Source of the DNA: Candidatus Doudnabacteria bacterium RIFCSPHIGHO2_01_FULL_46_14
GTDB taxonomy: Bacteria > Patescibacteriota > Doudnabacteria > UBA920 > 2-01-FULL-46-14
Reading direction: 5' to 3'
DNA length: 64,000 bases
Assembly (NCBI GenBank): GCA_001779925.1
Contig: MFEK01000007.1
Location: forward strand, 4,108-68,107
Positions 1,641-51,866 of the stretch are shown here, piece by piece. Position 1 is the stretch's first letter, and each line of letters opens with the position of its first letter. The position numbers and the translations under genes are program-made. The notes under the pieces are model-generated. The model saw nothing but the letters and a program-made list of their open reading frames with translations, was not told the origin of the DNA and made no database searches.

Positions 1641-1712
1641 TCCCTCCCCTTGCCGTGTCCGCCGTAGCTTCAGCGGAGGCTGGGAGGGGGAGGGTTAGGG
1701 AGGGGTGAAAAT
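1641..1712. repeat. GC-rich palindromic hairpin element (family A), intergenic copy
   Basis: tccctcccc...ccgccgtagcttcagcggaggctgggagggggagggttagggaggggtgaaa; the same 3' module recurs at 20290-20325, 50617-50650 and 51784-51815. Confidence 0.8.
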
Positions 1713-1927
1713 TATTCTCCGATTCTTTCCTTAATTCTGCCTAGCCTGGTTGTTATAATCACCGCGGCCAGAGTCACCAAAATCGCATATAGAAAAAGAG
1801 AAAGTACGCCTTTCCCTTTTGGTATAAATTGTTCAATCAATTTTTTTATTGCTTCGTTCCACGCCAGCGCCGCGACCAAGCCAAAAGCCGTGCCAACCAT
1901 CGTCAAACTTTCACTAACAATTTTCAC
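1712..1927 (-). CDS. Small membrane protein (GTG start)
   Basis: 71 aa with two hydrophobic helices, preceded by a conserved TTTTAACGGGGTGA box upstream of the start. Confidence 0.4.
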   Translation of the reverse strand: MKIVSESLTMVGTAFGLVAALAWNEAIKKLIEQFIPKGKGVLSLFLYAILVTLAAVIITTRLGRIKERIGE

Positions 1928-2164
1928 CCCGTTAAAAATTCCTGTTAATTAAAAAGTTAACGTCGAATAACTTATTATTTAGAGTATATAGCCTGTATAT
2001 CGAACAACAAATATTTCTAACGGGGTTCATTTTTACTTTTTTGTTTTGCTCTACCCGGCATCAGCCGTAGCTTTGAACTGCAGGCGAACGCCCTAGTAAC
2101 ACTACAAATAATATTTTTATTTCAACAGCTTGCACTTATCAATATAATTATAGCAAATTTTACC

Positions 2165-3565
2165 TTAGTTGTCAAGGAATTTTTCTGCGGCTGCGCCAAC
2201 AGCTTCGGAAAACGAAGGGTAAGCGTGAATCATGCGAGCCATAGTGGTCACTGGAATTTTCCCTTTCATTGCCAGAGCAATTTCGTGAATGAGCTGGCCA
2301 GCGTTCTGTCCGGCGATGTGTCCGCCGAGAACCTCCATGGTTTTGGCATCAACGATGATTTTCACAAACCCGCGAAAATCCCTCTCTATAAGGTAACGTC
2401 CCAATCCGCCGGTGCGGAAGCTCTCCGCCCGGTAGTTTAAATTTTTAAGTTTTGCCTGCGCTTCGGTTATGCCGACAGATGCAACCTCTGGTTCGCAAAA
2501 CGTCACGCGCGGGACTACGTCATAGTTGGTTTTCTCTTCATGATTGTGGCAAATGTTGCGTCCTACCAGATCTCCCTCGTAAGCTGCGGTATGCGTAAAC
2601 TGCCAATTACCGGCCGCATCCCCTGCCGCCCATATGTGCGACTGGTTGGTTTGCAGATATTCATTCAGCTTGAGCCGGCCTTTATTGTCTACCTCAATTC
2701 CTGCAGCCTGAAGATTTAGATCAAGATTCGCACGTCTGCCGGTCGCCACCAAAATCTCATCTGCCGCAACCTCTGTCTCTTCGCCGTTCGATTTGATTCG
2801 AATAGATTTGGCGCTGGCCAATCTGTGCGCGAACATGATCTCGCAGTTGGTATGGATTTCCGCGCCGCGCTTTGCCATGTCCTTGGCCACGAGGTCTGCG
2901 ATATCCGCATCTTCCCGCGGCAAGATCTGAGGATCGCGCTGCAGGACAACAACGCGCTTCCCAAAGCTGAGAAAAAGCTCTGTGAATTCCATACCGATCG
3001 GTCCCCCGCCGATGATAATGATGGACTCTGGCAAGCTTTCTGCTTTGACTGCAATATCAGAAGTCCAAAACCCAACATCCGCCAGACCTTCAATGGGAGG
3101 AATAAATTCTTTGGAGCCGGTGCCGATGACCGCGTGGTTGAAAGAATATTTTTTGCCACCAATTTTTAATTCATGCTCAGAGATAAATTCCGCTCTCCCC
3201 CATATGAGATCAATGCCGGCATTATGGAGATTTCTTTCAATGCGTGGCCCAGTCAGCTGATCCACTACGCCTTGCCGAAACATCGCGATCTTTTTGAAAT
3301 CAAATCTTAGATTGTCCATTTCAATACCAAACTCGGCTCCTTGCTGGGCCATTTTGTAAATATGCGCAGATTTGAGCATGGCCTTCGTAGGCACGCAGGC
3401 ATAGTTCGGACAATGTCCCCCAAGCTTGTCTTTGAACTCTTCCACAACCGCGACCTTCATATTCGCGCGCTTCGCCACGAACGCAGCTGACCCGCCGGCG
3501 CTGCCTGAGCCGATCGAGATCAAATCATAATCGAATTTGTGGGGCATTTTTGCTATTTGTTTCAA
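2165..3565 (-). CDS. FAD-dependent pyridine nucleotide-disulfide oxidoreductase (dihydrolipoyl dehydrogenase/glutathione reductase family)
   Basis: 466 aa; N-terminal GSGSAGG FAD motif, redox-active CPNYAC (CX4C), second GGGPIG NAD motif, C-terminal dimerisation region with HAYPS. Confidence 0.75.
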   Translation of the reverse strand: MKQIAKMPHKFDYDLISIGSGSAGGSAAFVAKRANMKVAVVEEFKDKLGGHCPNYACVPTKAMLKSAHIYKMAQQGAEFGIEMDNLRFDFKKIAMFRQGVVDQLTGPRIERNLHNAGIDLIWGRAEFISEHELKIGGKKYSFNHAVIGTGSKEFIPPIEGLADVGFWTSDIAVKAESLPESIIIIGGGPIGMEFTELFLSFGKRVVVLQRDPQILPREDADIADLVAKDMAKRGAEIHTNCEIMFAHRLASAKSIRIKSNGEETEVAADEILVATGRRANLDLNLQAAGIEVDNKGRLKLNEYLQTNQSHIWAAGDAAGNWQFTHTAAYEGDLVGRNICHNHEEKTNYDVVPRVTFCEPEVASVGITEAQAKLKNLNYRAESFRTGGLGRYLIERDFRGFVKIIVDAKTMEVLGGHIAGQNAGQLIHEIALAMKGKIPVTTMARMIHAYPSFSEAVGAAAEKFLDN

Positions 3566-3598
3566 AAAATAAATCCGCTTTGCCGGTATTATACCAGA

Positions 3599-4105
3599 TT
3601 ACTGCCAATTCATTCCTACGCAATACCAGTTCCCGGCGCCATCATAACAATCTTCACCGCCAGGATAACTGCCTTCCGGCCACATCAGCAGATAATAGCT
3701 TTGCCCGCTTTTTTGAGTTCTGTAGTGATACGGGGAAGGAAAATATGTCGGAGGGGATGTGCTCAAGGGATCAAGCGGCAATTTGCTCGTATACGGAGCA
3801 AGCTTGGTTTGCAAATCAGTCCAGCAGCCTTCGTAGCCTGGATAATAGGTAGCCCAGGAACCACTGCAATTAACAGACCCGCCTCCATCATACCTTGGAT
3901 ATACGCCATTGTTCGCGTCATAATACAGCTCCAGAGCATTTTGCAGCTGATGCAAATCCGCCACTCGCCGCGAATTTCTGGCTTTTAGCCTTGCACCGTT
4001 GAGCGATACCAAAATAATGCTGGCCAAAAAACCAATCACGCTGATGACCACCAAGAGTTCGATCAGCGTGAAACCGGAATTTTTGTGATTGGATTTTTGT
4101 CTCAT
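3599..4105 (-). CDS. Type IV pilin/pseudopilin-like protein (prepilin N-terminal cleavage/methylation domain)
   Basis: GFTLIELLVVISVIG N-terminal motif after a short basic leader; Cys-rich C-terminal half. Confidence 0.7.
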   Translation of the reverse strand: MRQKSNHKNSGFTLIELLVVISVIGFLASIILVSLNGARLKARNSRRVADLHQLQNALELYYDANNGVYPRYDGGGSVNCSGSWATYYPGYEGCWTDLQTKLAPYTSKLPLDPLSTSPPTYFPSPYHYRTQKSGQSYYLLMWPEGSYPGGEDCYDGAGNWYCVGMNWQ

Positions 4106-5141: not shown

Positions 5142-5206
5142 GTTTACTCTGTCCTCGCGTCGGGGTTATTTCTTTCACCCTACGGGTGATCTCCCGCAGG
5201 GAGACA

Positions 5207-5283
5207 TTTTACTTCTTCATCTCTTTGTGCGGGGTGTGCTTTTTGCACCACTTGTCAGCCAAAGGCTGATCTGCCGCGGGCAC
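5207..5283. repeat. Partial duplicate of the rpmG 3' end (last ~13 codons plus stop, minus strand) fused to a 30-nt hairpin motif TTGTCAGCCAAAGGCTGATCTGCCGCGGGC
   Basis: Reverse complement reads ...DKWCKKHTPHKEMKK*, a diverged copy of the rpmG C-terminus. The motif recurs at 48013-48052 next to the duplicated tRNA-Ser half. Confidence 0.6.
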
Positions 5284-6164: not shown

Positions 6165-6221
6165 AGGCTTTCAAATAATAATCGAAATATCGGGATTCTT
6201 CAAGACCGTCACAAGAATATT

Positions 6222-6308
6222 TCCTCCCCTGGATGGGGGAGGAATTGAGGAAGAGGTGTAGGAAACGTCATCACCCCCACCTAACCTCCCCCCTCAAGGG
6301 GGAGGAAT
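6222..6308. repeat. GC-rich palindromic hairpin elements (family A), two hairpins
   Basis: ttcctcccctggatgggggagga ... cacccccacctaacctcccccctcaagggggagga. Confidence 0.8.
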
Positions 6309-6313
6309 AAATT

Positions 6314-11597: not shown

Positions 11598-12458
11598 CTA
11601 GTTGTTTGTTTGGTATTTTAATTGCATTAATTTTTCACGAGCCAAAGTATTTGTCGGCTCGATCATTAATACTTTCTCCAGGAGAATTTCCGCCTCATCG
11701 CGACCCCCCTTTTTTACCAGAGCCTCTGATAAAATTATCACGGCTTGGGTATTTTCTGCATCCAAATCCACAGCCTTGCGATAATTGAGAATTGCTTCTT
11801 CGAGATGCTTTTTGGCCTCCAGAGTCATTCCCAGGTCGATATATCGGCGGGAATTCTCCGGCTCGAGATCGATAGCGCGCTCGTGAGCGCTGATCGCTTT
11901 GTCATACTGCTTGTGGTTATGGTACGCCTGTCCGAGACTGGCATGATAATGTCCTTTATCCGGGTAGTGCTTGATCAGAAACCGAAAAGTTTCTATTGAT
12001 TCTTTGGTTTTGTTTTGCGCCAAATAAAGCTTCCCTAGATAAGCGAACGCTTGCTCATTATGGGGATCTTTTTTTATAGCCTTAATAAAATGCTGTTCAG
12101 CATCAGCATGTTCACCCTGCTCAAGAAGCTTTTCTCCTTGTTTTATAAAAAACTCGGCTGTTCCGGGAGCCGCGCTTTTAAACGACGGCAATTTCAGCTT
12201 GGGTCGGGGCAAATGAAGTTTGGACAGATGTTTCGGCAGGAAACCCAGCGGCTGGGTTTTTCGGGAAAGCTCTTTGACCTCCAAAACAAAATGCCAGAGT
12301 TTTTGCGAGAGGATCCGCAGCCATTTTATGGTAAAATTTTCAAAATCTCGCAGCAGCACGGGCATGGGGAAGCGGAGCTCCGGTGTCCGGCGAAGCACAA
12401 TCAAAATTATGCCTGCCAATGAAAGCACAATTAATAATTGTGGGATAAACAAAAACAT
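11598..12458 (-). CDS. TPR-repeat protein with N-terminal TM helix
   Basis: Repeated AxxxYxxAlxxxP TPR-like 34-mers (HFIKAIKKDPHNEQAFAYLGKLY, etc.). Confidence 0.6.
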   Translation of the reverse strand: MFLFIPQLLIVLSLAGIILIVLRRTPELRFPMPVLLRDFENFTIKWLRILSQKLWHFVLEVKELSRKTQPLGFLPKHLSKLHLPRPKLKLPSFKSAAPGTAEFFIKQGEKLLEQGEHADAEQHFIKAIKKDPHNEQAFAYLGKLYLAQNKTKESIETFRFLIKHYPDKGHYHASLGQAYHNHKQYDKAISAHERAIDLEPENSRRYIDLGMTLEAKKHLEEAILNYRKAVDLDAENTQAVIILSEALVKKGGRDEAEILLEKVLMIEPTNTLAREKLMQLKYQTNN

Positions 12459-12473
12459 TTTTGATTTTGAAAT

Positions 12474-13070
12474 TTATTCGCCTAAAACGTAGCGTGTGAA
12501 TCTGCGGATTTGGATATTTTCCCCGATGGTAGCAATCTTTTGATTAACAAGCTCCTTGATGGTTATGTCTGGATCTTTGACAAACGGCTGTTCTAAAAGG
12601 CAAATTTCCTGAAAATATTTTTCTAGCTTTCCTTCCACGATTTTTTCGATGATATTAGCGGGTTTGGACTCTGCCACAATCTGCTCGCGGTAAATACTCT
12701 TTTCTTTTTCCACTAGATCAGTCGGGACATTCTCTCGCGCCACGTAAAGCGGGTTTGATGCTGCGACATGTAGCGCCAAATCGTGGGCCAGGGCTTTGAA
12801 ATCCTGATTGCGCGCCACAAAATCGGTTTCACAGTTGATCTCTAAAAGCACGCCGATGCGTCCCTCGCCGTGAATATAAGATTCGACAAGACCCTGACCA
12901 GTCGCGCGATCAGATTTCTTTCCGGCTTTCAAAACCCCCTTCTTGCGCAAAACCTCTACGGCAGCGGACACATCCCCCCCGGATTCAGACAAAGCAGTTT
13001 TGGCATCCATTACCCCGGCGCCTGTCTGTTCGCGCAAAGCCTTAACTTGTTCAGAGTTGATTTTAATCAT
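12474..13070 (-). CDS. tsf: Elongation factor Ts
   Basis: MIKINSEQVKALREQTGAGVMDAKTAL, UBA-like N-terminus and EF-Ts core. Confidence 0.9.
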   Translation of the reverse strand: MIKINSEQVKALREQTGAGVMDAKTALSESGGDVSAAVEVLRKKGVLKAGKKSDRATGQGLVESYIHGEGRIGVLLEINCETDFVARNQDFKALAHDLALHVAASNPLYVARENVPTDLVEKEKSIYREQIVAESKPANIIEKIVEGKLEKYFQEICLLEQPFVKDPDITIKELVNQKIATIGENIQIRRFTRYVLGE

Positions 13071-13073
13071 TGC

Positions 13074-13811
13074 TTATTTTTTCGGCAATGCCGACGTATC
13101 CGCCATAGGGACTGCGGCAACGGGCATCTCCAATTTACCCTCATTAACTGCAGCCGCAACCGCATCGCACATTAGGCTGATGGCTTTTATTGAATCATCG
13201 TTGCTGGGAATGACATAATCAATATCTTCCGGGTCAGAATTTGTATCCAGGAGGCCGATCACTTTGATTTTGGTCTTTTGCGCTTCTGTGACCGCGATCT
13301 TGTCATGATTAATATCCACCGCAAAAATCGCTTCAGGAAGTTTTTTTAGATCCTTGATGCCTTCAAAAAGATTGGCCAGTTTGGAGATCTCGCGCTCGAT
13401 GAGCAGTCGTTCTTTTTTGATATATTTTGTCTCAAAATCCGGACTCACTGCCAATTTCTGCAGCCGTTCCAATTTCTTGATGGTCTTCTGGATGGTTTTA
13501 AAATTGGTAAAAGTCCCGCCCAGCCAGCGGATCGTGACATAAGGCATGCCGCAAGAGACAGCGGCTTTCTTGACTGCGTCCTTTGCCTGGCGTTTGGTAC
13601 CGACAAACAATACCTGGCCGCCTTTTTTTGCAACTTCCCGCACGTGGTCGAGCGCCTTTTTCAGCTGTTCGAGAGTTTTTTCGAGATTGATAACGTGGAT
13701 GCGGTTGCGAGTAGTAAAAATGTACCGCTGCATTTTCGGATTCCACCGGCTGGAGAGATGTCCAAAATGCACCCCTGCTGTGAGCAGTTCTTCTAGTGTT
13801 GGGTAAGTCAT
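13074..13811 (-). CDS. rpsB: 30S ribosomal protein S2
   Basis: LLTAGVHFGHLSSRWNPKM..., VDINHDKIAVTEAQKTKIKVIGLLDTN. Confidence 0.9.
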   Translation of the reverse strand: MTYPTLEELLTAGVHFGHLSSRWNPKMQRYIFTTRNRIHVINLEKTLEQLKKALDHVREVAKKGGQVLFVGTKRQAKDAVKKAAVSCGMPYVTIRWLGGTFTNFKTIQKTIKKLERLQKLAVSPDFETKYIKKERLLIEREISKLANLFEGIKDLKKLPEAIFAVDINHDKIAVTEAQKTKIKVIGLLDTNSDPEDIDYVIPSNDDSIKAISLMCDAVAAAVNEGKLEMPVAAVPMADTSALPKK

Positions 13812-14032
13812 TGACGAGCTTTCTAGGATTTAGCTTGCCAGCTTTTTAGCCTGGCAACGGAATCCTTCCCTTAAACCTCTTCATCTCGTCATTTTTTTCC
13901 GGGAATTCGTTTTTCCCTCAGGAATCGCGAATCAGGGCCGAAAAAATCAGAGAGAATGTGTGATTAATAATACTTGAACGATTATAACAAGAATGATTAA
14001 CCTGCGCAAGGCCCGTCTAGCCGGCCATGCCC

Positions 14033-14061
14033 TTGCAAGAATCCTTTTTGCCTGTTATAAT
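14033..14061 (+). promoter_or_regulatory. Sigma-70-like promoter of rpmE
   Basis: TTGCAA, 17-nt spacer, TATAAT, 10 nt upstream of the rpmE start. Confidence 0.55.
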
Positions 14062-14071
14062 TTCGCTACTT

Positions 14072-14359
14072 ATGAAAAAAAGTTTACACCCAACATATTA
14101 CTCCTCTGCCAAAGTCGTTTGTGCTTGCGGCAATAGTTTTACCACCGGATCCACGCGCGAAGAGATCCATGTGGAAATTTGTAGCGCCTGCCATCCTTTC
14201 TACACCGGTAAACAGAAGCTTGTCGACACTGCCGGCCGCGTGGAAAAATTCCAGAAGCGCATGAAACAAGCAGAGACATCAGTCAAACTCCATATCTCCA
14301 AAAAACACAAGCTCACCAAAAAAGCTGAAGCAAAAGCTGCCAAAAAGGTAGAAAAATAG
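14072..14359 (+). CDS. rpmE: 50S ribosomal protein L31 with Lys-rich C-terminal extension
   Basis: [49 protein letters not shown]. Confidence 0.8.
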
Positions 14360-15487: not shown

Positions 15488-16398
15488 CAATCCGGGAAGC
15501 CTTCGTTTGGACGGAAAAAAAAATAAATAAGGCAGATTCACCTCAGTTAGATGCTGAGGTTCTTTTGTCACATACCATAAAAAAATCCAAAGAATTCCTT
15601 TTTGCCAATCCGGACTTCAAACTTTCTAGCTTACAGTTTTCCATTTACAGGTCACTAATTCAGAAGCGCGATAGGCACTGGCCGGTCTCTTACCTCATCG
15701 GCCATAAAGAATTCTACGGCTTGGATTTCAAAGTCACACCCCATGTCTTAATTCCAAGACCGGAGACGGAATTGCTGGTAGAACTCGCGATTCAAAAGAT
15801 AAAAAACAAGCGATTAGCGATTAGAAATATCCTCGACATCGGCACTGGAAGTGGCTGCATTATCACAAGCATTGCTGTCATTGCGAGCCAGAGGCGAAGC
15901 AATCTCAAATTCTATGCGACGGATGTTTCAAATTCCGCTTTGAAAATTGCGAAGTCAAACGCACGTCGTCATAGCGTCGCAAAAAAAATAAAATTCCTCC
16001 ACAGCAATTTACTCTCAACCCTACCAGCTACAGCCTACAAGCTACCATCTCTGATTCTCGCCAACCTCCCCTACCTTACCCCTTCGCAATATAATTCGAA
16101 TCTTGATCTAAAACACGAACCACGCGCGGCATTGGTCGCAGGCCCAGATGGACTGAAATATTACCGGAAATTGTTTCGACAAATTCGTAACTCCCCCAAC
16201 CCCTCTTACCCTAAGAGGGGAACTCCTCCCCTTAGCCTAAGGGGAGGTAGGGAGGGGTTATTGACCCTCCTGCTGGAACATGACCCGTCGCAAACCTCCA
16301 AACTAAAGTTTCTCACCAAACAGTATTTTCCCCAGGCCAAACTGAAATTCCACCGCGATTTATCCGGTCTCAATCGAGTTCTAGAAATAAATCTCTAA
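15469..16398 (+). CDS. prmC: Release-factor glutamine methyltransferase PrmC/HemK, carrying an in-frame repeat insertion
   Basis: [13 protein letters not shown] motif, NLPY catalytic motif, LLLEHD tail. The family A palindromic element at 16189-16262 is translated in frame. Confidence 0.8.
16189..16262. repeat. GC-rich palindromic element (family A) inside prmC, in frame
   Basis: aactcccccaacccctcttaccctaagaggggaactcctccccttagcctaaggggaggtagggaggggtt. The first module is near-identical to 30089-30122 in dnaE; both encode [11 protein letters not shown]. Confidence 0.8.
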
Positions 16399-16964: not shown

Positions 16965-18059
16965 ATGGACGACAAAATCCGGCTAGGACTCACCTTTGAT
17001 GACGTACTTTTAGAGCCCAGAGAATCTGGGGTGGTGAGAGACGGTGTCCGGCTCGAAACAAAACTCACAAAGAAAATAAGATTACAAATTCCGATTCTTT
17101 CCGCAGCCATGGATACGGTATCTGAAACCGCCATGGCTGTTTCGTTGGGTAAATTGGGCGGCATGGCTGTCATCCACCGCAATTGTTCCATTGAGGCCCA
17201 GGTTAAAATGGTTCGAGACGCCAAAAAACATGACGTTCTTGTGGGCGCTGCTGTTGGCTCTTATGATCTCGAGCGGGCCAAGGCCCTCGACAAAGCTGGC
17301 GCGGATGTAATCGTGGTAGACACAGCTCACGCGCATAATTTGCAAACTATCGCAGGCGCAAAACAAATTAAAAAATCAATTCGAGCAGAGCTGATCGTCG
17401 GCAATATCGCCACCAGCGAGGCGGCCTCGGAACTAGTCAAATTTGCTGATGCCATCAAGGTCGGCATTGGCCCTGGCTCCATCTGCACCACACGCGTGGT
17501 GGCCGGCATTGGCGTTCCCCAACTCACCGCGATTTTGGATGTGGTAAAAATCGCGAACAAAAAAAATATTCCGGTGATTGCTGACGGTGGTATGAAATAT
17601 TCCGGAGACATTGTGAAGGCTCTTGCCGCTGGCGCTTCTACTGTAATGCTTGGTTCTATGCTAGCGGGTACAAAAGAGGCGCCGGGGCAAGTCGTTAAAA
17701 TTGACGGGAAAGAATTCAAATCCTACCGCGGCATGGGCTCTCTCGGTGTAATGCACGGCGGTAAATCTTCTGATAGATATTTTCAAAAGAACCCCCTCTT
17801 CATCTCCCCCTTATTAAGGGGGAGAAAGAGTGGGGGTTATGTGCCGGAAGGCGTGGAGGCCGTGACGCTTTACAAAGGAGAATTACAAGACGTAATTTTC
17901 CAGATTACCGGAGGCCTTGCAAGCGGCATGGGCTACATTGGCGCGCGCACCATTGCCTATATGCCAAAAAGGGCCAAATTCATACGGATAACAAACGCTG
18001 GTCTCAAAGAGTCTCACCCCCATTCTATAACAATAATTAAGCGTTCACCCAATTATTAA
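16965..18059 (+). CDS. guaB: IMP dehydrogenase/GMP reductase family enzyme (short form lacking the CBS subdomain), with a small in-frame repeat insertion
   Basis: [11 protein letters not shown] catalytic loop, ...SSDRYFQ...GYVPEGVE. A 15-aa insertion ([15 protein letters not shown]) is encoded by the palindromic element at 17792-17837. Confidence 0.75.
17792..17837. repeat. GC-rich palindromic hairpin element inside guaB, in frame
   Basis: accccctcttcatctcccccttattaagggggagaaagagtgggggt. Confidence 0.75.
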
Positions 18060-19270: not shown

Positions 19271-20908
19271 ATGATTTACGTTCTTGATTTCGGTTCTCAA
19301 TACTCCCATCTCATTACTCGCCGCATACGCGAGCTCGGCGTACTTGCCGAATTGGTCGCGCCCAATATTTCTCTGGATAAACTGAAATCCGCAGACGGCA
19401 TTATCCTCTCCGGCGGACCGCAAAATCTTTCGGACAGCGACGCGCTCCGCGTGGACAAAAAAATCTTTAACCTAGGCGTTCCTATCCTTGGCATCTGCTA
19501 TGGCATGCAGCTGACGGCTTACGAGCTGGGCGGCCGCGTGAAGGCGGGTAAAAAACGCGAATACGGGCCGACTGACATTAAAATAATAAAACCCGGCAAA
19601 CTGTTTGCTGGACTCAAGCCAAACCAGCGAACCTGGATGTCACACGGAGACCAGGTGGTCAGACTGCCGAAAGGATTCACAAAAATTGCCGGCTCAGTAA
19701 ACTGTCCGATCGCGGCTATGTCCAACCAGGCAAAAAACATCTACTGCCTGCAATTTCATCCTGAGGTCATCCATACCGAGAATGGGAAAAAAATCCTGGA
19801 AAATTTTATAAAAATCACGGGAGCGGCCAGAACCTGGTCAATGAAAGATTTTATTGCTAAAGAAATCGACAAAGTAAAAAAACAAATTGGCAGAGATAAA
19901 GCGATCTGCGCGCTGTCCGGCGGCGTGGATAGCGCAGTGGCTGCAAAAATAGTTTCCAAGGCTATCGGCAAAAATCTCATTTGTATTTACGTGGACACTG
20001 GCCTCATGCGCCTTGGCGAAACCGCGCAGATCAAAAAGTCATTCAAAAACCTCAGAGTCGTTAATGCCGAGAAAGAATTTCTTGCCAAGCTCAAAGGCGT
20101 CACTGACCCAGAAAAAAAGCGTAAAACTATTGGCGAGCTGTTTATTCGGATTTTTGAACGCGAGGCAAGGAAATTGTCACCCCCACCTAGCCTCCCCCCT
20201 CGAGCCTACCCCAAAAGCGAGTACGCTTTCGGGGGACCCCGGCAAGGGGGAGGAAAAAGAAACAAATTCCCCTCCCTTACTGTGCCCGCCGTAGCTTCAC
20301 GCGAAGGCTGGGAGGGGAGGGTGAAATTTCTTGTCCAGGGCACGCTGTATACTGACGCGGTAAGCTCTGGCGTATCAATTGGAAAAACGGCTGCAGTCAT
20401 CAAATCGCATCACAATGTCGGCGGTCTTCCTAAAAAACTGGGGTTCAAACTCATCGAGCCGCTCCGTGATTTGTACAAATACGAGGTCAGAAAACTCGGC
20501 CGCGAGCTCGGCCTTCCCAAATCGATTTATAACCGCCAGCCCTTCCCCGGTCCCGGGCTCGGCGTCCGAGTGATCGGCGAGGTCACAGAAGAAAAACTGG
20601 AACTCCTGAAAAAAGCAGACGCTATTGTCTGCGAGGTAATTGAGAAATCCAAAATCGCCGTTGATCAATATTTTGCCGTACTGCCAGATATTCGGTCAGT
20701 CGGGGTTCAGGGTGATTTTCGCACCTATGGCTGGCCAATCATTATCCGCGCGCTGAATACCGCTGACTACCTCACGGTCCACTGGGCAAAAATTCCCCAT
20801 CCGATTCTGGAAAAAATCTCCACCCGCATCACCAACGAGGTTCGCGGCATAAACCGTGTGGTTTACGATATCACCTCCAAACCCCCTGCCACGGTGGAGT
20901 GGGAATAA
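19271..20908 (+). CDS. guaA: GMP synthase (glutamine-hydrolysing) carrying a ~150-nt in-frame repeat insertion
   Basis: Class I GATase N-terminus (GICYGMQL), PP-loop SGGVDSAV, C-terminal KPPATVEWE. A 48-50 aa insertion lies between REARKLS and KFLVQGTLY relative to canonical GuaA. Confidence 0.9.
   Translation: MIYVLDFGSQYSHLITRRIRELGVLAELVAPNISLDKLKSADGIILSGGPQNLSDSDALRVDKKIFNLGVPILGICYGMQLTAYELGGRVKAGKKREYGPTDIKIIKPGKLFAGLKPNQRTWMSHGDQVVRLPKGFTKIAGSVNCPIAAMSNQAKNIYCLQFHPEVIHTENGKKILENFIKITGAARTWSMKDFIAKEIDKVKKQIGRDKAICALSGGVDSAVAAKIVSKAIGKNLICIYVDTGLMRLGETAQIKKSFKNLRVVNAEKEFLAKLKGVTDPEKKRKTIGELFIRIFEREARKLSPPPSLPPRAYPKSEYAFGGPRQGGGKRNKFPSLTVPAVASREGWEGRVKFLVQGTLYTDAVSSGVSIGKTAAVIKSHHNVGGLPKKLGFKLIEPLRDLYKYEVRKLGRELGLPKSIYNRQPFPGPGLGVRVIGEVTEEKLELLKKADAIVCEVIEKSKIAVDQYFAVLPDIRSVGVQGDFRTYGWPIIIRALNTADYLTVHWAKIPHPILEKISTRITNEVRGINRVVYDITSKPPATVEWE
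20176..20325. repeat. GC-rich composite palindromic element (family A) inserted in frame in guaA
   Basis: cacccccacctagcctcccccctcgagcctaccccaaaagcgagtacgctttcgggggaccccggcaagggggaggaa...ccgccgtagcttcacgcgaaggctgggaggggagggtgaaa; near-identical to the intergenic copy at 50675-50755. Confidence 0.85.
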
Positions 20909-29800: not shown

Positions 29801-30508
29801 GCGGACGAAAACCAGTATTTCACTATCGGCGGCATCATCACCCGCATCCAAAACATTCTCACCAAAAAAGGCGATCAGATGTGTTTTGCGGATATTGAGG
29901 ACGAAAGCGGCAAGCTGGAGCTGGTTGTGTTTCCGAATGTTTATAGTGAATCCAAATCCTTGCTCGCGGTAGACCAAATCCTTCTCACGAGAGGCAAGAT
30001 TTCCGATAAAGATGGGGAAATAAAACTGCTGGTGGATTCTATGAAATTGATTGGAGACGCGGATTTGGAAAAATGGGTTAACACTCGTAACTCCCCTAAC
30101 CCCTCTTACCCTAAGAGGGGTATTGCCCCCCACCTAACCTCCCCCACTGCCTACTCCGCCGAAGTGGCTACGGAGGCCGGACAGGGGGGAGGAAAAAATG
30201 CAGGGGATTTCCCTCCCCAGAACAGGACTTACTCTTCTATCTTCCCTCCCCCCGGTGAGGAGGGACTGAGGGAGGGGGGGCGCGTTCTCAAAATCAAAAT
30301 CCCCAAAACCGCAGACCCGCAGGTGTTTAACAAATTAAAAATCGTGTTCAACAAATTCCCAGGCGAGGTGGCCGTGTCCCTCGTCATCCCCGACCGCGAA
30401 GGAACGGAACGGGAAGTGAAAACTGACTTTAAAGTAGACAGCACCGACCTGTTCAAAACCGAGTTGCGGGAACTCTTACGCCAGAGCATCCAGCACGTCA
30501 AGTCTTGA
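26888..30508 (+). CDS. dnaE: DNA polymerase III alpha subunit with a ~190-nt in-frame repeat insertion near the C-terminus
   Basis: PHP domain (HLHVHSHYSLLDG), polymerase core, OB-fold region. The C-terminal region contains translated family A palindromic elements at 30089-30281. Confidence 0.9.
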   Translation: MQFTHLHVHSHYSLLDGLSKIPDLISAVQKKGMEAVALTDHGALYGALEFYKAARRSGVKPIIGLEAYVAPGSMLEKKTPADADYFHMILLARNNEGYQNLLKLVTASHLEGYYYKPRIDKKLLSQYSSGLIGLSGCLRGEIARAVAAGNFDSAKRIALEYQNIFEPDGFYLELQRNLEEPQQQTVNDGLIKISRETSIPIVATNDAHYLNPEDNAAQDILVCIGTGTTVEQTDRLDMRKMKLHLASPEEMAELFSDIPEAIANTQKIADMVDLTLSLEKRHFPSFPVPEGQNAEDYLEKLSLRGLKEKKPDRELPAEILTRLNYELDVIKKKGYAGYFLVVADFVNWSRARGIISTTRGSAAGSLVAYALGITTLNPIEYKLPFERFLNPYRPTPPDIDMDFADNRRDEVLNYVSDKYGRDRVAQIVTFGTMMARAAVRDVGRALGVAYSKCDRIAKMIPLGKQGFHMTIEKALTLAPELKEAFDRDQETRNLIELARKVEGCARHASVHAAGVVIAPTSLSSYTPLQLDTDNKNIITQYDMHSVEEAGLVKMDFLGIRNLSILGNAVEVVRTSRGIDIDLGKIPLDDPKTYKLLSLGRTMGVFQLGGSGMTKYLVDLKPTNIFDIMAMISLYRPGPMESIPEFIQRKHNAALITYIDPRLKEILDMSYGVITYQEDVLLTAITVAGYTWEEADKLRKAMGKKIPKEMMAQKEKFIQGAITGGLSSEKAVKLWALIEPFAAYGFGKAHAASYAMVAYQTAYMKANFPVEFMAAVMTAEAGDNEKVAQAVNECASLEIEVLPPDVNESLANFTAINDRQIRFGLNAIKNLGSDVIETIIAERAKGGEFASLGDFVRRMKTRNFNKKSWEALAKSGSLDRYGERNQLLLNTEIILEYAKAEQKQLASGQSMLLGGATAAAQELLLRNAPQASDQEKLSWEKELLGLYVSSHPLRSHRALLEKYCKPINVLSIADENQYFTIGGIITRIQNILTKKGDQMCFADIEDESGKLELVVFPNVYSESKSLLAVDQILLTRGKISDKDGEIKLLVDSMKLIGDADLEKWVNTRNSPNPSYPKRGIAPHLTSPTAYSAEVATEAGQGGGKNAGDFPPQNRTYSSIFPPPGEEGLREGGRVLKIKIPKTADPQVFNKLKIVFNKFPGEVAVSLVIPDREGTEREVKTDFKVDSTDLFKTELRELLRQSIQHVKS
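30089..30281. repeat. GC-rich composite palindromic elements (family A) inside dnaE, in frame
   Basis: aactcccctaacccctcttaccctaagagggg...ccccccacctaacctccccc...ggacaggggggaggaaaaa...cttccctccccccggtgaggagggactgagggaggggggg. Confidence 0.85.
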
Positions 30509-33811: not shown

Positions 33812-33911
33812 TGCTAAAATTGAACGCCGGAAGAATAAATAACTCCTCCTCGCCTCCCATTAAATTAAGGGGAGGAAACTATCCTCTTAAGATAAGCGGG
33901 GCGGAAAAATT

Positions 33912-34862
33912 ATGAAGTTGCCAAAGCTCATCATCATAACCGGACCCACCGCCTCCGGAAAGACTGCCTTGTCTTTAAAATTGGCCAAAAAAATTCACGG
34001 CGAAATAATCTCAGCTGACAGCCGGCAAATCTATCGCGGCATGGACATCGGGACGGCAAAACCGTCCCGAGATCAAAGATCAAAAATCAAAGATCAAAAT
34101 TTTTATTCCAAAGGGATTCGCCACCACCTCATTGATATTCGTAATCCTGATCAGCCCTATACTCTGGCTGAGTTCAAACGCGATGCCATAAAAGCGATAA
34201 ATACCATTGCGAAACGCGGCCGCGTCCCCTTTCTGGTCGGCGGCACAGCTCTCTACATCTGGGCTATTCTGGAAAATCCGGAAATACCCGAGGTTAAACC
34301 GAATAGCAAATTTAGAAATCTGCTTGAACGACAGTTACAGCGACACGGCGTTCAATACCTCTACAAAAAACTAATTCTAAAAGACCCCGAAGCCGCCTGC
34401 ATCATTGATCCAAAAAATCCCCGCAGAATCATCCGCGCTCTGGAAATAATGCACGCTACAGGCAAACCGTTTTCGGATTCTCGAAAAAAAGGAGCATCGC
34501 TCTTTGATTGCATGGTTTTGGGAATGAAACTGCCGCCCGCAAAATTGAAAAAAATAATCAAGCTTCGCGCAGCCCAGCAGTTACGCTCCAATCTCATTTC
34601 CGAAGTCCGAAGATTAACTAAAAAATATGGCATACAAAGGCAAGCCTTTGATGCTATAGGCTACCGCGAAATAATTTCTCATTTGAATGGGCAAATTTCC
34701 AAAGCCGAAGCTCTAAAACAAATCCAAAACAACACCTGGCATTTTGCTGGCCGCCAGATGACCTGGTTTAAAAAACTACCGATTGAGTGGATCAAAAATT
34801 ACAAGCAGGCTGAAACGAAAATCAAAACGCATTTATTCCTCCCCCTTGAAGGGGGAGGTTAG
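33912..34862 (+). CDS. miaA: tRNA dimethylallyltransferase
   Basis: P-loop GPTASGKT, DSRQIYRGMDIGTAKP. The last 9 codons and stop lie in a palindromic element. Confidence 0.85.
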   Translation: MKLPKLIIITGPTASGKTALSLKLAKKIHGEIISADSRQIYRGMDIGTAKPSRDQRSKIKDQNFYSKGIRHHLIDIRNPDQPYTLAEFKRDAIKAINTIAKRGRVPFLVGGTALYIWAILENPEIPEVKPNSKFRNLLERQLQRHGVQYLYKKLILKDPEAACIIDPKNPRRIIRALEIMHATGKPFSDSRKKGASLFDCMVLGMKLPPAKLKKIIKLRAAQQLRSNLISEVRRLTKKYGIQRQAFDAIGYREIISHLNGQISKAEALKQIQNNTWHFAGRQMTWFKKLPIEWIKNYKQAETKIKTHLFLPLEGGG

Positions 34863-34924
34863 GTGGGGATGGAGAATTTAAGTACTTCACCCCTCCCTTA
34901 ATCCCTCCCCCTCAAGGGGAGGGA
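34837..34924. repeat. GC-rich palindromic hairpin elements (family A), three hairpins overlapping the miaA 3' end
   Basis: ttcctcccccttgaagggggagg...cacccctcccttaatccctccccctcaaggggaggg. Confidence 0.8.
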
Positions 34925-34932
34925 AAATTTCT

Positions 34933-46203: not shown

Positions 46204-46327
46204 TGATTAAGACGAGCCACAATGAGAAATGTTTCAAAGTGGAATCTATATTACACCATATATCGAGAAAAAAATCCAGCCCTAGGCTGGTCAGCCTCGG
46301 GCTGAAAAGCTGATTGTAAAAGTTGAT

Positions 46328-47942: not shown

Positions 47943-47985
47943 AACCTTATTTTATCATATAATTAATAGTGCTACGAGGTGGGGT

Positions 47986-48023
47986 CGCATAGCGGTTTAG
48001 TGCACCAGTCTTGTCAGCCCAAG
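47986..48023 (+). pseudogene. Duplicated 5' half of tRNA-Ser(UGA): acceptor, D-arm and anticodon stem up to CUUG
   Basis: GGTGGGGTCGCATAGCGGTTTAGTGCACCAGTCTTG versus the intact gene at 48302 (GGTGGGGTCGCATAGTGGTCGAGTGCACCAGTCTTG): 32/36 identical. Confidence 0.6.
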
Positions 48024-48028
48024 GCTGA

Positions 48029-48316
48029 TCCGCCCCGGGCGGAAAAACCAAAAACTATACGCATTATGTTTACATACTAAAAAGTGAAAAAACGGGAAAA
48101 CTCTACAAAGGCAGCACGGATGATTTGAGGAAAAGAATACTTAACCACAATGCTCGCAAAGTAAATTCCACAAAAGGCGGGACACCATGGAAATTGATAT
48201 ACTATGAAGCATTTATCTCAAAAATGGACGCAAGGAGAGAGGAGCTATTTTTAAAAAGCGGAAAGGGTCGCGAGAGAATTAAGTGGCTATTTAATCAAAA
48301 TGGTGGGGTCGCATAG
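48029..48316 (+). pseudogene. GIY-YIG endonuclease-domain ORF with no in-frame ATG/GTG/TTG before the GIY motif (possibly degenerate)
   Basis: Frame reads ...HYVYILKSEKTGKLYKGSTDDLRKRILNHNARK...GTPWKLIYYEAFISKMDARREELFLKSGKGRERIKW. The GIY...YKG, R, E, N core is intact. An in-frame TGA lies at 48026; the first candidate start (TTG 48125) is after the GIY motif; the stop lies inside the downstream tRNA. Confidence 0.55.
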
Positions 48317-48399: not shown

Positions 48400-48480
48400 T
48401 CAAAATGTAAATATCAAAATGTAAAATGACAGTGTTTAAATTTTAAAATTTTTAATTGTCATTTCGATTTTTACACTTTG
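48400..48480. repeat. AT-rich palindromic intergenic element, copy 2 (upstream of recG)
   Basis: aaaatgtaaatatcaaaatgtaaaatgacagtgtttaaattttaaaatttttaattgtcatttcga. Confidence 0.7.
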
Positions 48481-50612
48481 CATTTTACATTATCATGTTA
48501 TCAATAAATGATTCTGTCTCCAAACTCCACCTTGTTAAACCTGAGCACCTTGAGGCCTTATCCAAGCTTGGCATTAAAACCGTAAAAGATTTACTGTATC
48601 ATTTTCCCCGGGACTGGCAGGATCTTTCGGAAATTAAAAAGATTTCCGAGATACGGCCAGGGGAAAAGATCAGCATCAAGGCTCGAGTTAAACATCTGAG
48701 CATTCCTGGCTTTCCTTTTCGCAGGGTCAAGATCACGGAAGCCCTGCTCGAGGATGAAACCGGAAATGTGGTCGCGATCTGGTTTAACCAGCCGTACATA
48801 AAAAATTCGCTTCGCTTGGGAAATGAATATTATTTCAGCGGCAAGGGTCAGATTTACGCCACAAAAAAACAGCAAACCCTCCAGCTGACGCATCCCACAT
48901 TTGAGATGGTACGCGAGGAAACAATTCATGTTGCCGGTCTTATCCCTGATTACCCGCTCACAGAAGGTATAACCCAAAAACAAGTCCGCTATTGGCTTAA
49001 ACAAGCTCTGGAATCTTTGCCGCAGCTCATAGAGATCCTGCCGGAAAAGTTGAAGAAAAAAATGAAGCTTATCGGGCACACGGAGGCAATAAAAAATCTA
49101 CATTTCCCTGATGATGCAGCCCATCTCAAAAAAGCAAAAAACCGCCTAGCTTTTGAGGAGTTATTTCTGTTTCAGCTGGCTTTCCAAAGCTATAAAAAAA
49201 CGTTAAAGTGCCTGCCGGCACCGGCAATCCAATTCGACAAAAATCTGGTAAGCCAATTCGTCGAGAAACTTTCGTTTCAGCTCACTGCCTCCCAGCGCCT
49301 CTCTGCCTGGGAAATCCTCAGCGACATGGCAAAGCCCCACCCTATGAACCGGCTCCTGGAAGGAGAGGTCGGCTCCGGGAAAACCGTAGTCGCCGGACTG
49401 GCTATGCTGGAAACGGCTACGGCCGGCTATCAATCGATATTGCTGGCACCGACGGAGATTTTGGCCTGGCAGCATTACCAAACCCTGGAAAAGCTTTTTG
49501 CGCATACTGGCATTAAGATTGCTTTGCAAACACGAAGTCATAAAATTGGGGAGATTAGGGAAATAAGGGAAGGCACGATCAAAATAATTGCAGGAACTCA
49601 TGCCCTTCTCCAAGAGCGGATCAGTTTCCATAAAATCGGTCTTTTAGTAATCGATGAACAGCACCGGTTTGGCATCAAACAGCGGCAAGCATTGCTTCGC
49701 GGACAAGCCGAGTTAGTTCCTCACCTATTAAGTATGACTGCGACCCCGATCCCGCGCACGCTCGCTCTGGCATTTTACGGAGACCTGGATATATCAAAGC
49801 TGAAGGAACTGCCCTCGGGAAGAAAAAAAGTCATCACGAAATTGGCATCGCCTGAGAATCGCGTGCTCGCCTACGAAGTTGTCAGAAAGGAATTGCAAAG
49901 AGGCCGACAGGCTTATGTGATCGTGCCGCTTGTCGGAGAAACAAGCGATTTATCACCCCTCCCTAACCCTCCTCCTCAAGGGGAGGGAAATACAAATGAA
50001 ACAAAATCAGTAATTACAGAGGTCGAAAAATTAAAAAAAATTTTCCCAGAATTCCAGATCGGCCTTCTTCATGGCAAAATGCCCGGCGAGGAAAAGAAAA
50101 AAATCATGCAAGTATTTTCCGCCAAAGGCGGATCCGCAACCGGCGGAAAAGCTCATAAAATAGACATTCTCGTTTCCACGACCGTGGTCGAGGTCGGCGT
50201 AGATGTTCCAAACGCCACGATTATGATCATCGAGAACGCAGAACGGTTCGGCTTGTCGCAGCTGCACCAACTACGCGGTCGGGTTGGAAGATCACACCTG
50301 CAGTCTTTGTGCGTGCTGTTCGCCGGCCTCTATTCCGAAACGACACGGCAGCGCCTGGAAGCAGTCGTGAATAGCAATGACGGATTTGAGCTTGCGGAAA
50401 TTGATTTGAAGATGCGCGGCGCCGGCGAAATACTCGGCACCAAGCAGTCCGGTTTTATTCCCTTCAAAATCGCCTCGCTCAGCGACGAAAAAACAATCGA
50501 ATCAGCAAAAAAAGAAGCCCTGGCTCTTTTGGAGCAGGACCCTGAACTTGAGAATTATCCAATGCTGATGAAAAAGGTTGCGGAGATTTCAAAAGAAGCC
50601 CATCTGGAATGA
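48456..50612 (+). CDS. recG: ATP-dependent DNA helicase RecG with small in-frame repeat insertion
   Basis: Wedge/OB N-domain, helicase motifs GSGKT, DEQHRFG, TATPIPR, QLRGRVGR. A 13-aa insertion SPLPNPPPQGEGN is encoded by the palindromic element at 49954-49988. Confidence 0.9.
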   Translation: MSFRFLHFAFYIIMLSINDSVSKLHLVKPEHLEALSKLGIKTVKDLLYHFPRDWQDLSEIKKISEIRPGEKISIKARVKHLSIPGFPFRRVKITEALLEDETGNVVAIWFNQPYIKNSLRLGNEYYFSGKGQIYATKKQQTLQLTHPTFEMVREETIHVAGLIPDYPLTEGITQKQVRYWLKQALESLPQLIEILPEKLKKKMKLIGHTEAIKNLHFPDDAAHLKKAKNRLAFEELFLFQLAFQSYKKTLKCLPAPAIQFDKNLVSQFVEKLSFQLTASQRLSAWEILSDMAKPHPMNRLLEGEVGSGKTVVAGLAMLETATAGYQSILLAPTEILAWQHYQTLEKLFAHTGIKIALQTRSHKIGEIREIREGTIKIIAGTHALLQERISFHKIGLLVIDEQHRFGIKQRQALLRGQAELVPHLLSMTATPIPRTLALAFYGDLDISKLKELPSGRKKVITKLASPENRVLAYEVVRKELQRGRQAYVIVPLVGETSDLSPLPNPPPQGEGNTNETKSVITEVEKLKKIFPEFQIGLLHGKMPGEEKKKIMQVFSAKGGSATGGKAHKIDILVSTTVVEVGVDVPNATIMIIENAERFGLSQLHQLRGRVGRSHLQSLCVLFAGLYSETTRQRLEAVVNSNDGFELAEIDLKMRGAGEILGTKQSGFIPFKIASLSDEKTIESAKKEALALLEQDPELENYPMLMKKVAEISKEAHLE
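49954..49988. repeat. GC-rich palindromic hairpin (family A) inside recG, in frame
   Basis: cacccctccctaaccctcctcctcaaggggaggg. Confidence 0.8.
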
Positions 50613-50616
50613 GTCT

Positions 50617-50765
50617 TTTCCCCTCCCTTGATGGGAGGGGTAAGGGAAGGGTGAAATTTAATTATGCCACCCCCCACCTATAACCTCCCCCATCGAGCCT
50701 ACCCCAAAACCGAGTACGCTTTTCGGAGACCCCGGCAAGGGGGAGGAACTAAATTCAGGGGGATA
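50617..50765. repeat. GC-rich composite palindromic element cluster (family A), intergenic
   Basis: cccctcccttgatgggaggggtaagggaagggtgaaa...caccccccacctataacctcccccatcgagcctaccccaaaaccgagtacgcttttcggagaccccggcaagggggaggaa; 80-nt core about 90% identical to the guaA insertion. Confidence 0.85.
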
Positions 50766-51766
50766 ATTCCAAAGAATACAAATTACCCGCGCCGTCAATA
50801 TAAAAGAGGATGTCCTTGAATGGATGCAAAAACGCGTCGCGGACAGGACCGCCGGGAAAACTGCCCCAGTCTTTGACATCGCCGGTTCTGGTATTTTCTT
50901 CTTTCAGCAAACCATTGGTCGCGAATATCACACCGCCGCTATCCCTGCTCCATATCGCAAAATCGGTACTGGCGATGCTAAAATCCTTTCTCTGCTTGGT
51001 GGCAAAATCATAGAACCAAAATACCAAAACCCCTGCCTTGTTTTCGCTGACCAAAAGCTTGCTACCGTCCGGAGAAAACCGAGTATTTTCATACCTGCCG
51101 TTATCCGCAATATTGCTGAATGTTGACGCGGCCAGATCAACATGAATCAAAGGCGAGGTTGTGGCGTTTGCAAACATCACAAGCTCCAGCTTGCGCGGAT
51201 GCGCGACAAGTCGATAGTCGGACCGGAACAGGTCGCCGATTTTGGCAAAATTACTGCTGTTGATATCAGAAATTTTCAGTTCGTGATTATCGCCTATTAC
51301 CCAATCATAGGCAATTCTGGCATCGCCGGCGAGGATAACCGGCTCGCGAATATTGTCCGGATACTGCGAAAGCTGTTTATCACTGGCGCGAACATAAGTG
51401 TAGCGAAGGTGTCCGTCAATATTTTGCGCAACGATGAAATCACTGCCTTTTTCCTGCCATTGTACGTCCGAGGGATTTTTTATGGTTTCCGGAAGGATAA
51501 ACTCTTCGCGTGCTCCAGATTCAAGATTTACGCTAAGGATTTTACCATCCAGAGTCAGGTACCATACCCGCTCTCCGTTGAATGAAGGAACAGCCGAGAC
51601 AACCTCTTGGGCTAGTATTTTTTGGGCAGGGTTCTCGTCAGAAACAGTATTCTCAGGCGCAGGAACCGGTACGGTATCGCGATTGCGGCGAATATAAAGA
51701 AAACCGAGACTCAATATCAGCAGTATAGTGAGAATGACCGTGGTGATTATAAAAATTTTTCTCATT
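50755..51766 (-). CDS. Hypothetical membrane-anchored protein, possible beta-propeller repeats (start MRKIFII)
   Basis: N-terminal TM then repetitive beta-rich sequence. Flanked on both sides by family A elements; the ORF-track N-terminal extension into the repeat was trimmed. Confidence 0.4.
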
Positions 51767-51783
51767 GTACATCTCCTGTCTTT

Positions 51784-51866
51784 TCCCCTCCCTTGATGGG
51801 AGGGGTTGGGGGAGGGTGATAAATTAGACAGTTCACCCCACCTTACCTCCCCCCTCAAAGAGGGAA
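51784..51866. repeat. GC-rich palindromic element cluster (family A), intergenic
   Basis: cccctcccttgatgggaggggttgggggagggtgataaa...caccccaccttacctcccccctcaaagaggg. Confidence 0.8.

Follow-up and report, generated by a model that had tools for sequence, protein, structure and literature searches.

A G/C-rich three-box repeat, probably a variant of BoxC/PIT/TMECO, lies in frame in housekeeping genes of Candidatus Doudnabacteria

Introduction

How do G/C-rich palindromes come to lie within several conserved housekeeping genes of one bacterium while the reading frames run on through them? The question is raised by a stretch of 64,000 nucleotides (nt) of DNA from Candidatus Doudnabacteria, which we call the window and to whose positions all coordinates refer. 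A first-pass annotation of this DNA had described a palindromic element with the motif CCYCCCCC-N3-5-GGGGGRGG at 11 or more loci, had compared its behavior with that of the Rickettsia palindromic elements (RPEs), and had taken the family to be undescribed and the host to resemble the candidate phyla radiation (CPR). The last point is borne out by the source of the DNA, a Doudnabacteria genome to which exact matches of its proteins (OGE79096-OGE79115) lead. As for the element, we consider it likely that its units are a sequence variant of the BoxC/PIT/TMECO intrastrand-triplex repeats, also described as G-quadruplex (G4)-hairpin repeats, and that they spread as selfish DNA and are translated where they lie in frame in genes.

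Results

A multicopy three-box repeat in the window

The repeat family is real, and its density in the Doudnabacteria window is very high, with about 16 units in 64 kb. Taken literally, the motif of the first-pass annotation fits only two places (6285 and 34838), whereas a profile built from ten units detects about 16 units and covers all 11 loci. The hairpin core, with up to two mismatches and a 4-nt loop, was matched nine times at five loci, compared with 0.07 matches expected from shuffles, which confirms a multicopy palindromic element. Repeat finding in the window yielded several families of 38-70 nt, and the near-identity of copies inside and outside genes was found as claimed: 20188-20255 in guaA and the intergenic 50681-50748 are 91% identical over 68 nt (about 90% over 80 nt had been estimated for the guaA insert and 50675-50755), 16185-16231 in prmC and 30085-30131 in dnaE are 89% identical over 47 nt, and 50613-50654 and 51778-51819 are 93% identical. 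Eight units lie on each strand, a balance that results from their pairing; the arrangement reported as "usually in tandems" is more accurately one of inverted doublets.

On the purine-rich strand, a unit reads TTCC(C/T)CCCC, a loop that is usually TTGA-like, GGGG(G/A)GGG, TTA or TAA, a second G-box, and TGA. The first G-box is complementary to the C-box, and loop 1 between them measures 3-7 nt when it is not enlarged. This hairpin had been recognized in the first-pass annotation, but the third box of each unit, a mirror image of the first G-box, had been overlooked. The succession of C-stem, loop, G-stem, loop of about 3 nt, and second G-stem is present in 13 of the 16 window units, with TTA, TAA, or TTG as loop 2, and both G-boxes obey the mirror relation at 7 or more of 8 positions in 13 of 16. 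The single A of the stem shifts between units, and its shifts are followed in the C-box and at the A/T of the third box. In all DNA examined, the third box is described better by the mirror rule in 183 units and by a direct rule in 3, with 32 ties; when the stem class selected by the search pattern itself is left out, the counts are 50, 2, and 31. Predicted DNA folds of the units, which cover Watson-Crick hairpins only, range from -9.9 to -19 kcal/mol (z-scores of -2.3 to -5.2).

The units are 40-45 nt long and occur in three forms: as single units, as inverted doublets, and with a hairpin nested in loop 1. The six inverted doublets (6218/6266, 34829/34883, 50611/50664, 51776/51828, 20177/20267, and 30120/30236) measure about 85-145 nt, have the ends TCACCCC...GGGGTGA, and are flanked by A/T-rich DNA. 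Nested hairpins of 33-47 nt, belonging to two families, enlarge loop 1 in five units. The composite of 80-150 nt noted earlier does exist and is an ordinary unit with such a second hairpin, a relation that had escaped notice. Two spacers, recG/next gene (filled entirely by 50611..50657 and 50664..50752) and miaA/gatB, are built wholly of units. Four G-runs with an adjacent complementary C-rich tract are exemplified by GGGGGAGGGTTAGGGAGGGG at 1686-1705; several window units have G-runs of only 2 (e.g., GGTTAGGTGGGG), for which a weaker G4 potential is predicted.

In-frame copies in six conserved genes

Pfam supports the identities of all six host genes, and at least nine units lie inside guaA, dnaE, recG, guaB, and prmC and in the tail of miaA. 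The reading frame continues through the five internal copies, as had been stated, with lengths now corrected to 45 nt in recG (35 before) and 36 nt in guaB (46 before). In guaA (19271-20908; OGE79101.1, UniProt A0A1F5NN39), the two units together make up 47 amino acids (aa), or 141 nt (nt 20180-20320, residues 304-350), slightly less than the 48-50 aa and about 150 nt first given. This is a clean insertion, because the GMP synthases in the PDB align unbroken from query residue 303 to 351, and at this point the closest relative, whose core is 85% identical, reads GGA AAC. The insert, with peptides such as LSPPPSLPPR, NKFPSLTVPAVASR, and EGWEGR, is a coil in the AlphaFold2 model, between helix 280-302 and strand 351-355; its predicted local distance difference test (pLDDT) score is below 50, and the mean of the model is 80.9. 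The identical insert-bearing protein was recovered from independent NCBI, JGI, and ENA assemblies, so the insert is not an assembly artifact. The GenBank label of this GMP synthase is "hypothetical protein," perhaps owing to the 47-aa insert.

RecG has 15 extra aa (45 nt) compared with Thermotoga RecG (1gm5), and the alignment gap falls exactly at the unit. GuaB exceeds a 71%-identical relative by 12 aa (36 nt) and 2cu0 by about 9 aa, within a variable flap. The 74-nt insert reported in prmC is upheld as an in-frame element: about 26 aa derive from it, the PDB alignments end exactly where it starts, and relatives have different inserts at the same position. Part of it may stand in for the native L-x-P-G-G loop. 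The dnaE element, first put at about 190 nt, is a composite of about 200 nt in the linker between the OB domain and the conserved C-terminal domain; this linker is variable throughout the homologues and is longest in the window, by about 38 aa relative to the closest homologue. The sixth copy was rightly assigned to the end of miaA, where a unit contains the TAG stop and the 9 or so codons before it, the TAG being the TTA loop read in frame. Alignment with orthologues indicates that the inserts are lineage specific, the PDB homologues and closest relatives being without the segments; the RPE-like insertion in frame into conserved housekeeping genes is seen in guaA, recG, guaB, prmC, and dnaE alike. 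From the GuaA model (a coil) and the interdomain linkers of dnaE and of a Doudnabacteria carA (see below), the insert sites are predicted to be loops or linkers compatible with the fold.

Reading frames

All five internal inserts preserve the frame, and the measured lengths in guaA, recG, and guaB are multiples of three. The C-rich strand of the unit has TAA in one of its frames. Among the 11 in-gene units whose C-rich strand is the coding strand, 8 are read in frame 1 (S-P-x-P-N-L-P-x-Q-G-G-G-K), 3 in frame 2 (H-P-H-L-T-S-P...K-G-E-E), and none in the TAA frame. Because the lengths are multiples of three and the TAA frame is never used, the inserts are likely to be translated, as extra proline- and glycine-rich loops.

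Distribution beyond the window

When one genome per species was scanned, the 18-mer CCCCACCTAACCTCCCCC was found at 120 or more loci in many phyla, and at nearly every listed locus it is followed by a short loop and then GGGGGAGG(A/G)A, that is, by the same unit as in the window. The occurrence of the exact 18-mer with its hairpin in many phyla does not fit a separate, undescribed family. Hosts among the matches listed are Devosia, Azospirillum, Sideroxydans, Dehalococcoidia, Tepidisphaeraceae, Nitrospirota, Spirochaetota, Melainabacteria, Omnitrophota, Saccharibacteria, and Doudnabacteria, and large plasmids or chromids of Deinococcus, Photobacterium, and Rhizobium also carry the 18-mer with the hairpin.

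In-frame copies are not confined to the CPR, yet they look much more frequent there. Inserts of 6-42 aa, rich in Pro, Ser, Gly, and Arg, are present in 24 of 121 CPR GuaA sequences at two hot spots, after residues 259 and 303 (for example, SPSPNLSHQGRGKNKKFPSLEGRGK and APPPHLPHKGGGKKQKIPPLDG); they are scattered over a neighbor-joining tree, and the nearest relatives of the window protein have no insert. At the guaA site of the window, a syntenic relative, L122, carries a plain doublet; the window copy adds a hairpin in each loop. Another relative (L124) has the same doublet type at site 1, whereas the window and L122 have theirs at site 2. Three syntenic CPR loci (13-22 kb) yielded 12 units, every one of them within prmC or guaA. 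The 18-mer led to 144 units, 4 of which are in frame in Pfam-supported genes: those for a glycosyltransferase in a metagenome-assembled genome (MAG) labelled Saccharibacteria, Doudnabacteria CarA (29 aa at a domain junction), a thiolase in a Rickettsiales MAG (+10 aa), and an oxidoreductase in an alphaproteobacterial MAG. Comparison with PDB homologues confirmed the inserts in CarA and in the thiolase.

Several further observations concern these loci. In-frame peptides such as VIARSEATKQSR... occur at the same hot spots in a GuaA homologue (P0024) and in prmC of L122 (1193-2188); they appear to derive from a different hairpin family, and several families appear to use the same permissive sites. 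L124 (CAZMCQ010000001.1, labelled Saccharibacteria) shares with window 11598-30508 the gene order TPR-tsf-rpsB ... prfA-prmC-guaB-add-guaA ... ftsW-dnaE; either this synteny is deeply conserved or the Saccharibacteria label is doubtful. An Oscillibacter MAG contains an 84-bp tandem array with the 18-mer in every copy (L116, 1-422). In Dehalococcoidia OZ241913.1 (L028, L051, L098, and L105), a very high-copy unit has longer conserved flanks and often lies beside a second hairpin, TTCCTGCCTGCGCAGGAA. A general role of the G-box as a Shine-Dalgarno sequence in a regulatory hairpin was considered and rejected: a start codon with a long open reading frame (ORF) follows only 15 of the 144 units, and the start is mostly TTG or GTG.

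Relation to BoxC/PIT/TMECO

Intrastrand triplex motifs were reportedly described by Hoyne and Maher in 2000-2002. BoxC is also known as the PIT element and as the TMECO "intrastrand triplex motif," whose type-A second loop is TTA (Holder et al. 2015, PMC4666352). The boxes of one E. coli TMECO copy align collinearly with those of the window consensus, as does the TTA loop, at about 75% identity by eye. The median number of such places per E. coli genome is 17, and no feature is annotated at the best five matches listed. The architecture, this collinear alignment, and the published properties assign the family, held to be undescribed, to BoxC/PIT/TMECO as a variant. Of the earlier likening to RPEs, the in-frame behavior stands and the family assignment has moved. 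The literature gave no match to the 14-mers of the window itself, and the family was traced through the related E. coli-type sequence. A limited literature search on CPR with palindromic, MITE (miniature inverted-repeat transposable element), REP (repetitive extragenic palindrome), or in-frame insertions brought up nothing relevant. Rfam returned only tRNAs at gathering scores and, in a relaxed search, chance microRNA-like hairpins; a phage collection held no match to the repeat.

Other repeats and elements in the window

The positions of the units and of two other repeat families are collected in Table 1. A 2.8-kb transposon of the IS1595 family (51882-54669) abuts the units at 51776-51872. 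It has perfect 28-bp inverted ends (51882-51909 and 54642-54669) flanked by a CAATAT direct repeat and carries the transposase (53410-54333), a DUF5343 gene (52406-53158), and a tRNA-Ser(aga) gene (52234-52318). In a second repeat family, two small hairpins lie side by side (CAGCC-NNN-GGCTG-ATC-NGCC-NNN-GGCN), and their stems show compensatory changes from copy to copy; one copy, at 50114, continues the frame of recG, and Thermotoga RecG has a 10-aa gap (KGGSATGGKAH) there. Another copy is preceded by a duplicate (47978-48013) of the tRNA-Ser(tga) gene at 48302 that covers its first 36 nt at 92% identity. Neither ARAGORN nor Rfam calls a tRNA there, and the stretch may be a remnant of integration or rearrangement.

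Intergenic arrays of TACGAA/TTCGTA, often palindromic, account for 68 hexamers, compared with about 35 expected. They are concentrated at 58.7-61.9 kb, beside type IV secretion-like (TraG/VirB4) and PT-TG toxin genes, and may be operator sites. A GCGATT(G) tandem repeat with related inverted copies (GCGATCTGCGAACAGCGATTGGCGA) occurs at two distant loci (62176-62206 and 62224-62254; 14358-14394). An A/T-rich palindromic repeat of 70 nt lies downstream of guaB (18063-18132) and upstream of recG (48402-48471), the copies being 74% identical.

Table 1. Three-box units and two other repeat families in the window
Feature	Position	Strand	Location and remarks
Unit with C-box CCCTCCCC, G-box GGGGAGGG, TTA, mirror G-box GGGAGGGG; 37-nt nested hairpin in loop 1	1640..1712	+	Intergenic; directly upstream of UPF0047 gene
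UPF0047 gene (Pfam)	start 1630	-	
Degenerate unit	6218..6262	+	Intergenic; left half of inverted doublet
Unit; + strand reads CACCCCCACC-TAA-CCTCCCCC-CTCAA-GGGGGAGG	6266..6312	-	2 nt from stop of SH3-domain gene (6314)
In-frame composite	16185..16264	.	prmC, about aa 239-265; outer C-box/G-box stem around hairpin A (CCCCTCTTACCCTAAGAGGGG) and a unit hairpin with mirror box
In-frame four-box palindrome	17788..17842	.	guaB, IMPDH flap; +12 aa vs L122
First unit of insert, C-rich on coding strand; 47-nt nested hairpin in loop 1	20177..20256	-	guaA
Second unit of insert (inverted partner); 33-nt nested hairpin, truncated third box	20267..20320	+	guaA
Second copy of hairpin A	30085..30120	.	dnaE; encodes same 12-residue peptide as prmC copy
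In-frame unit; 39-nt nested hairpin	30120..30195	-	dnaE; peptide APHLTSP...GQGGGKN
Degenerate inverted partner unit, in frame	30236..30285	+	dnaE
Degenerate unit	33836..33882	-	Between divergent DUF5667 gene and miaA
Unit forming gene end	34829..34876	+	miaA, last ~9 codons; TTA loop gives TAG stop (34860-34862)
Unit, inverted partner of miaA-tail unit	34883..34930	-	Fills gap to gatB stop (34933)
In-frame unit	49946..49992	-	recG, +15 aa; peptide SPLPNPPPQGEGN...
Unit	50611..50657	+	Begins at recG stop codon
Unit with 47-nt nested hairpin	50664..50752	-	91% identical to guaA copy
Unit	51776..51824	+	Intergenic; 93% identical to 50613-50654
Degenerate partner unit	51828..51872	-	10 nt from left end of IS1595-family transposon
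Double-hairpin repeat, five copies	5171-5201, 5251-5281, 46272-46302, 48010-48040, 50114-50144		
TACGAA/TTCGTA arrays	23296-23353, 26803-26878, 58765-58820, 59515-59620, 60017-60074, 60489-60592, 61399-61424, 61825-61849		

Discussion

Proposed copying and persistence of the repeat

We hold it probable that the units represent a selfish, non-autonomous three-box repeat that is copied as composites and translated where it lies in frame. According to this explanation, the repeat would act as selfish repeated DNA at very high density, and whole composites would be copied to new sites. Because composites that include an unrelated nested hairpin are common to coding and intergenic sites, copying is favored over repeated origin in place. 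The copying step would most likely depend on single-stranded hairpin or triplex structure, and the candidate routes are template switching at a stalled fork or in repair, or the action of an unlinked Y1-type single-strand transposase. As a working hypothesis, we favor such structure-dependent copying of single strands. In genes, copies would persist only at permissive loops and linkers, with a length that is a multiple of three, and in frames free of the TAA, TAG, and TGA of the motif. These copies would be translated as disordered loops, rich first in Pro, Ser, and Leu and then in Gly, Arg, and Lys (e.g., SPxPNLPxQGGGK...FPSLEGRGKG), and the inserts are presumably near-neutral.

Several points weigh against this explanation. 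The published TMECO pattern CCCTCNCCC-N3-6-GGGNGAGGG-N3-GGGNGAGGG has no match on either strand of the window; the units are therefore a variant subfamily and not the E. coli subfamily. Neither a target-site duplication nor a fixed target sequence was found at five doublet junctions, where divergent orthologues limit the precision. A Pfam search of 40 of the larger window ORFs detected only a transposase of the IS1595 type, none that is tied to the units, and no transposase of the Y1 type, including the REP-associated tyrosine transposases (RAYTs). Triplexes or G4 structures of the window units are candidates, and a stable triplex was not seen in vivo by Holder et al. Translation of the inserts is deduced from their DNA, and the low pLDDT score of the GuaA insert does not prove a surface position. 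The balance of gain and loss is read from a simple neighbor-joining tree, and the doublets that the window and L122 carry at one guaA site could be orthologous and not independent.

Alternative explanations

The repeat could be a CPR-specific family of miniature transposons, in the strict sense of RPEs or MITEs, moved by a DDE transposase such as the IS1595-type enzyme of the window. The inverted ends of the doublets, TCACCCC...GGGGTGA, the IS1595-family gene near the units at 51776-51872, and the patchy presence among relatives would fit such a family. However, the perfect 28-bp ends of the IS1595 element (TGGGAATTATATAC...) and its CAATAT duplication are unrelated to the units, and a link between this transposon and the units was rejected for that reason. 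When judged as MITEs, the doublets have the inverted ends but showed no duplication at the five junctions that divergent orthologues allow to be read with limited precision, and single units lack symmetry. Because the unit is found in many phyla, the family is not specific to the CPR. We regard this explanation as quite improbable.

It could also be proposed that units arise in place, by slippage or hairpin-templated synthesis at G/C-rich codons, and that their similarity is convergent. The overlap of part of the prmC insert with the native L-x-P-G-G loop position, the recurrent hot spots in guaA and prmC, and the failure to find signatures of transposition are consistent with this proposal. 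It does not account for a 68-nt composite that contains an unrelated nested hairpin and is 91% identical at two unlinked loci, nor for the 47-nt piece common to prmC and dnaE and the same 18-mer in many genomes, and it is very unlikely to hold.

Another possibility is that the segments never reach the protein, being cut out like introns or bypassed by the ribosome like the byps that derive from GC clusters in some yeast mitochondria, so that normal proteins result. The inserts do form strong predicted hairpins within coding regions, and an analogy with mitochondrial GC clusters can be drawn. But neither excision nor ribosomal bypass would impose constraints on frame and stop codons, and both are disfavored by the five frame-preserving inserts and by the finding that none of the 11 units is read in the TAA frame. 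In addition, no Rfam ribozyme or intron family was matched, and miaA uses the stop codon of its unit as a genuine stop, which leaves this explanation hardly credible. That the segments are old functional parts of the proteins (selected linkers) or assembly artifacts deserves scarcely any credence, since, against the position of the dnaE and carA inserts in linkers and the doublet at the same guaA site in two lineages of about 72% amino-acid identity, there stand PDB homologues and closest relatives without the segments, identity with intergenic copies at the DNA level, and the recovery of the exact protein in assemblies of three databases.

Implications

The repeat to which we assign the units has been known since the 1990s, and triplex or G4-hairpin repeats have so far been treated as purely intergenic curiosities. 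In the reduced-genome CPR bacteria, selfish structured DNA appears to shape essential proteins, as RPEs do in Rickettsia, which calls for caution: "insertions" in CPR proteins may be derived from repeats. More tentatively, the repeat might be a general, unrecognized source of protein-loop insertions in the CPR and some Alphaproteobacteria that copies itself by template switching, induced by its hairpin or triplex, without a dedicated transposase; we put this forward as a possibility and ourselves find it rather doubtful. If it is true, in-frame copies and empty orthologous sites would provide the first precise junctions from which the mechanism can be read. How the repeat moves, and whether selection acts on the three-box structure, can now be tested with the help of filled and empty sites, nested copies, and frame constraints.

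Comparison with known systems

Protein-coding genes of yeast mitochondria are invaded by GC clusters, small G/C-rich hairpin elements that include the byps; the ribosome skips byps, for which keeping the frame is unnecessary. In contrast, the window inserts keep the frame and are free of stop codons throughout. REP and REPIN elements, which are mobilized by RAYTs, resemble the units as short G/C-rich imperfect palindromes for which the inverted doublet is the apparent copying unit and no target duplication is made. They differ in the conserved GTAG/CGTC tag, which is absent beside the window hairpins, and in being extragenic and species specific, whereas the window unit is conserved across phyla and enters genes.

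As far as the summary of Ogata et al. (2000, 2002) in PMC10969869 describes them, RPEs are palindromic repeats of Rickettsia of about 100-150 bp that lie in frame in unrelated housekeeping genes, give recurrent peptides at fold-compatible sites, and have no transposase of their own. In all but size the window units are alike in these respects (40-45 nt for units and 85-145 nt for doublets). The two are set apart, by description, in sequence family, the window units aligning with E. coli TMECO, and by the three-box mirror architecture of the units; the window family is pan-bacterial and RPEs are restricted to a genus. RPEs are A/T-rich, unlike the G/C-rich window units.

The same E. coli motifs, as HPG1 and HPG2, have been described as a G-quadruplex-hairpin-duplex switch (Kaplan et al., NAR 2016, PMC5100583), and similar motifs, all non-coding, have been found in methanogenic archaea and Deinococcus (2021 paper, PMC8044849). 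HPG1/HPG2 and the recurrent potential quadruplex sequences of archaea share with the units four G-runs with a C-rich tract and a hairpin that competes with a G4 or triplex; they were described only in non-coding regions, and the structures of the window units are predicted ones.

The closest likeness is to TMECO itself, of which 262 proteobacterial genomes hold 3610 copies and which has G/C-rich counterparts in cyanobacteria, Thermus, and Neisseria; the 23 copies of E. coli K-12 are all intergenic, inverted pairs are known, and no mobility genes lie nearby (PMC4666352). The triplex was formed in vitro and not shown in vivo, and the motif has been linked to local genome instability (PMC4666352). 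The window units share the three-box architecture, the mirror rule, multiple copies with high conservation within a genome, inverted pairs, the lack of associated mobility genes, and a wide phylogenetic spread. They differ in their boxes (GGGGGAGG and GGGAGGGG instead of GGGNGAGGG, at one or two positions), in a density about 50 times higher (16 units in 64 kb compared with 23 per E. coli K-12 chromosome), in the nested hairpin that often occupies loop 1, and in the many copies that lie in frame in genes, whereas TMECO was reported to be always intergenic. What appears to be new is the coding location, the density, the nested forms, and the recurrent hot spots of this repeat in housekeeping proteins of the CPR.

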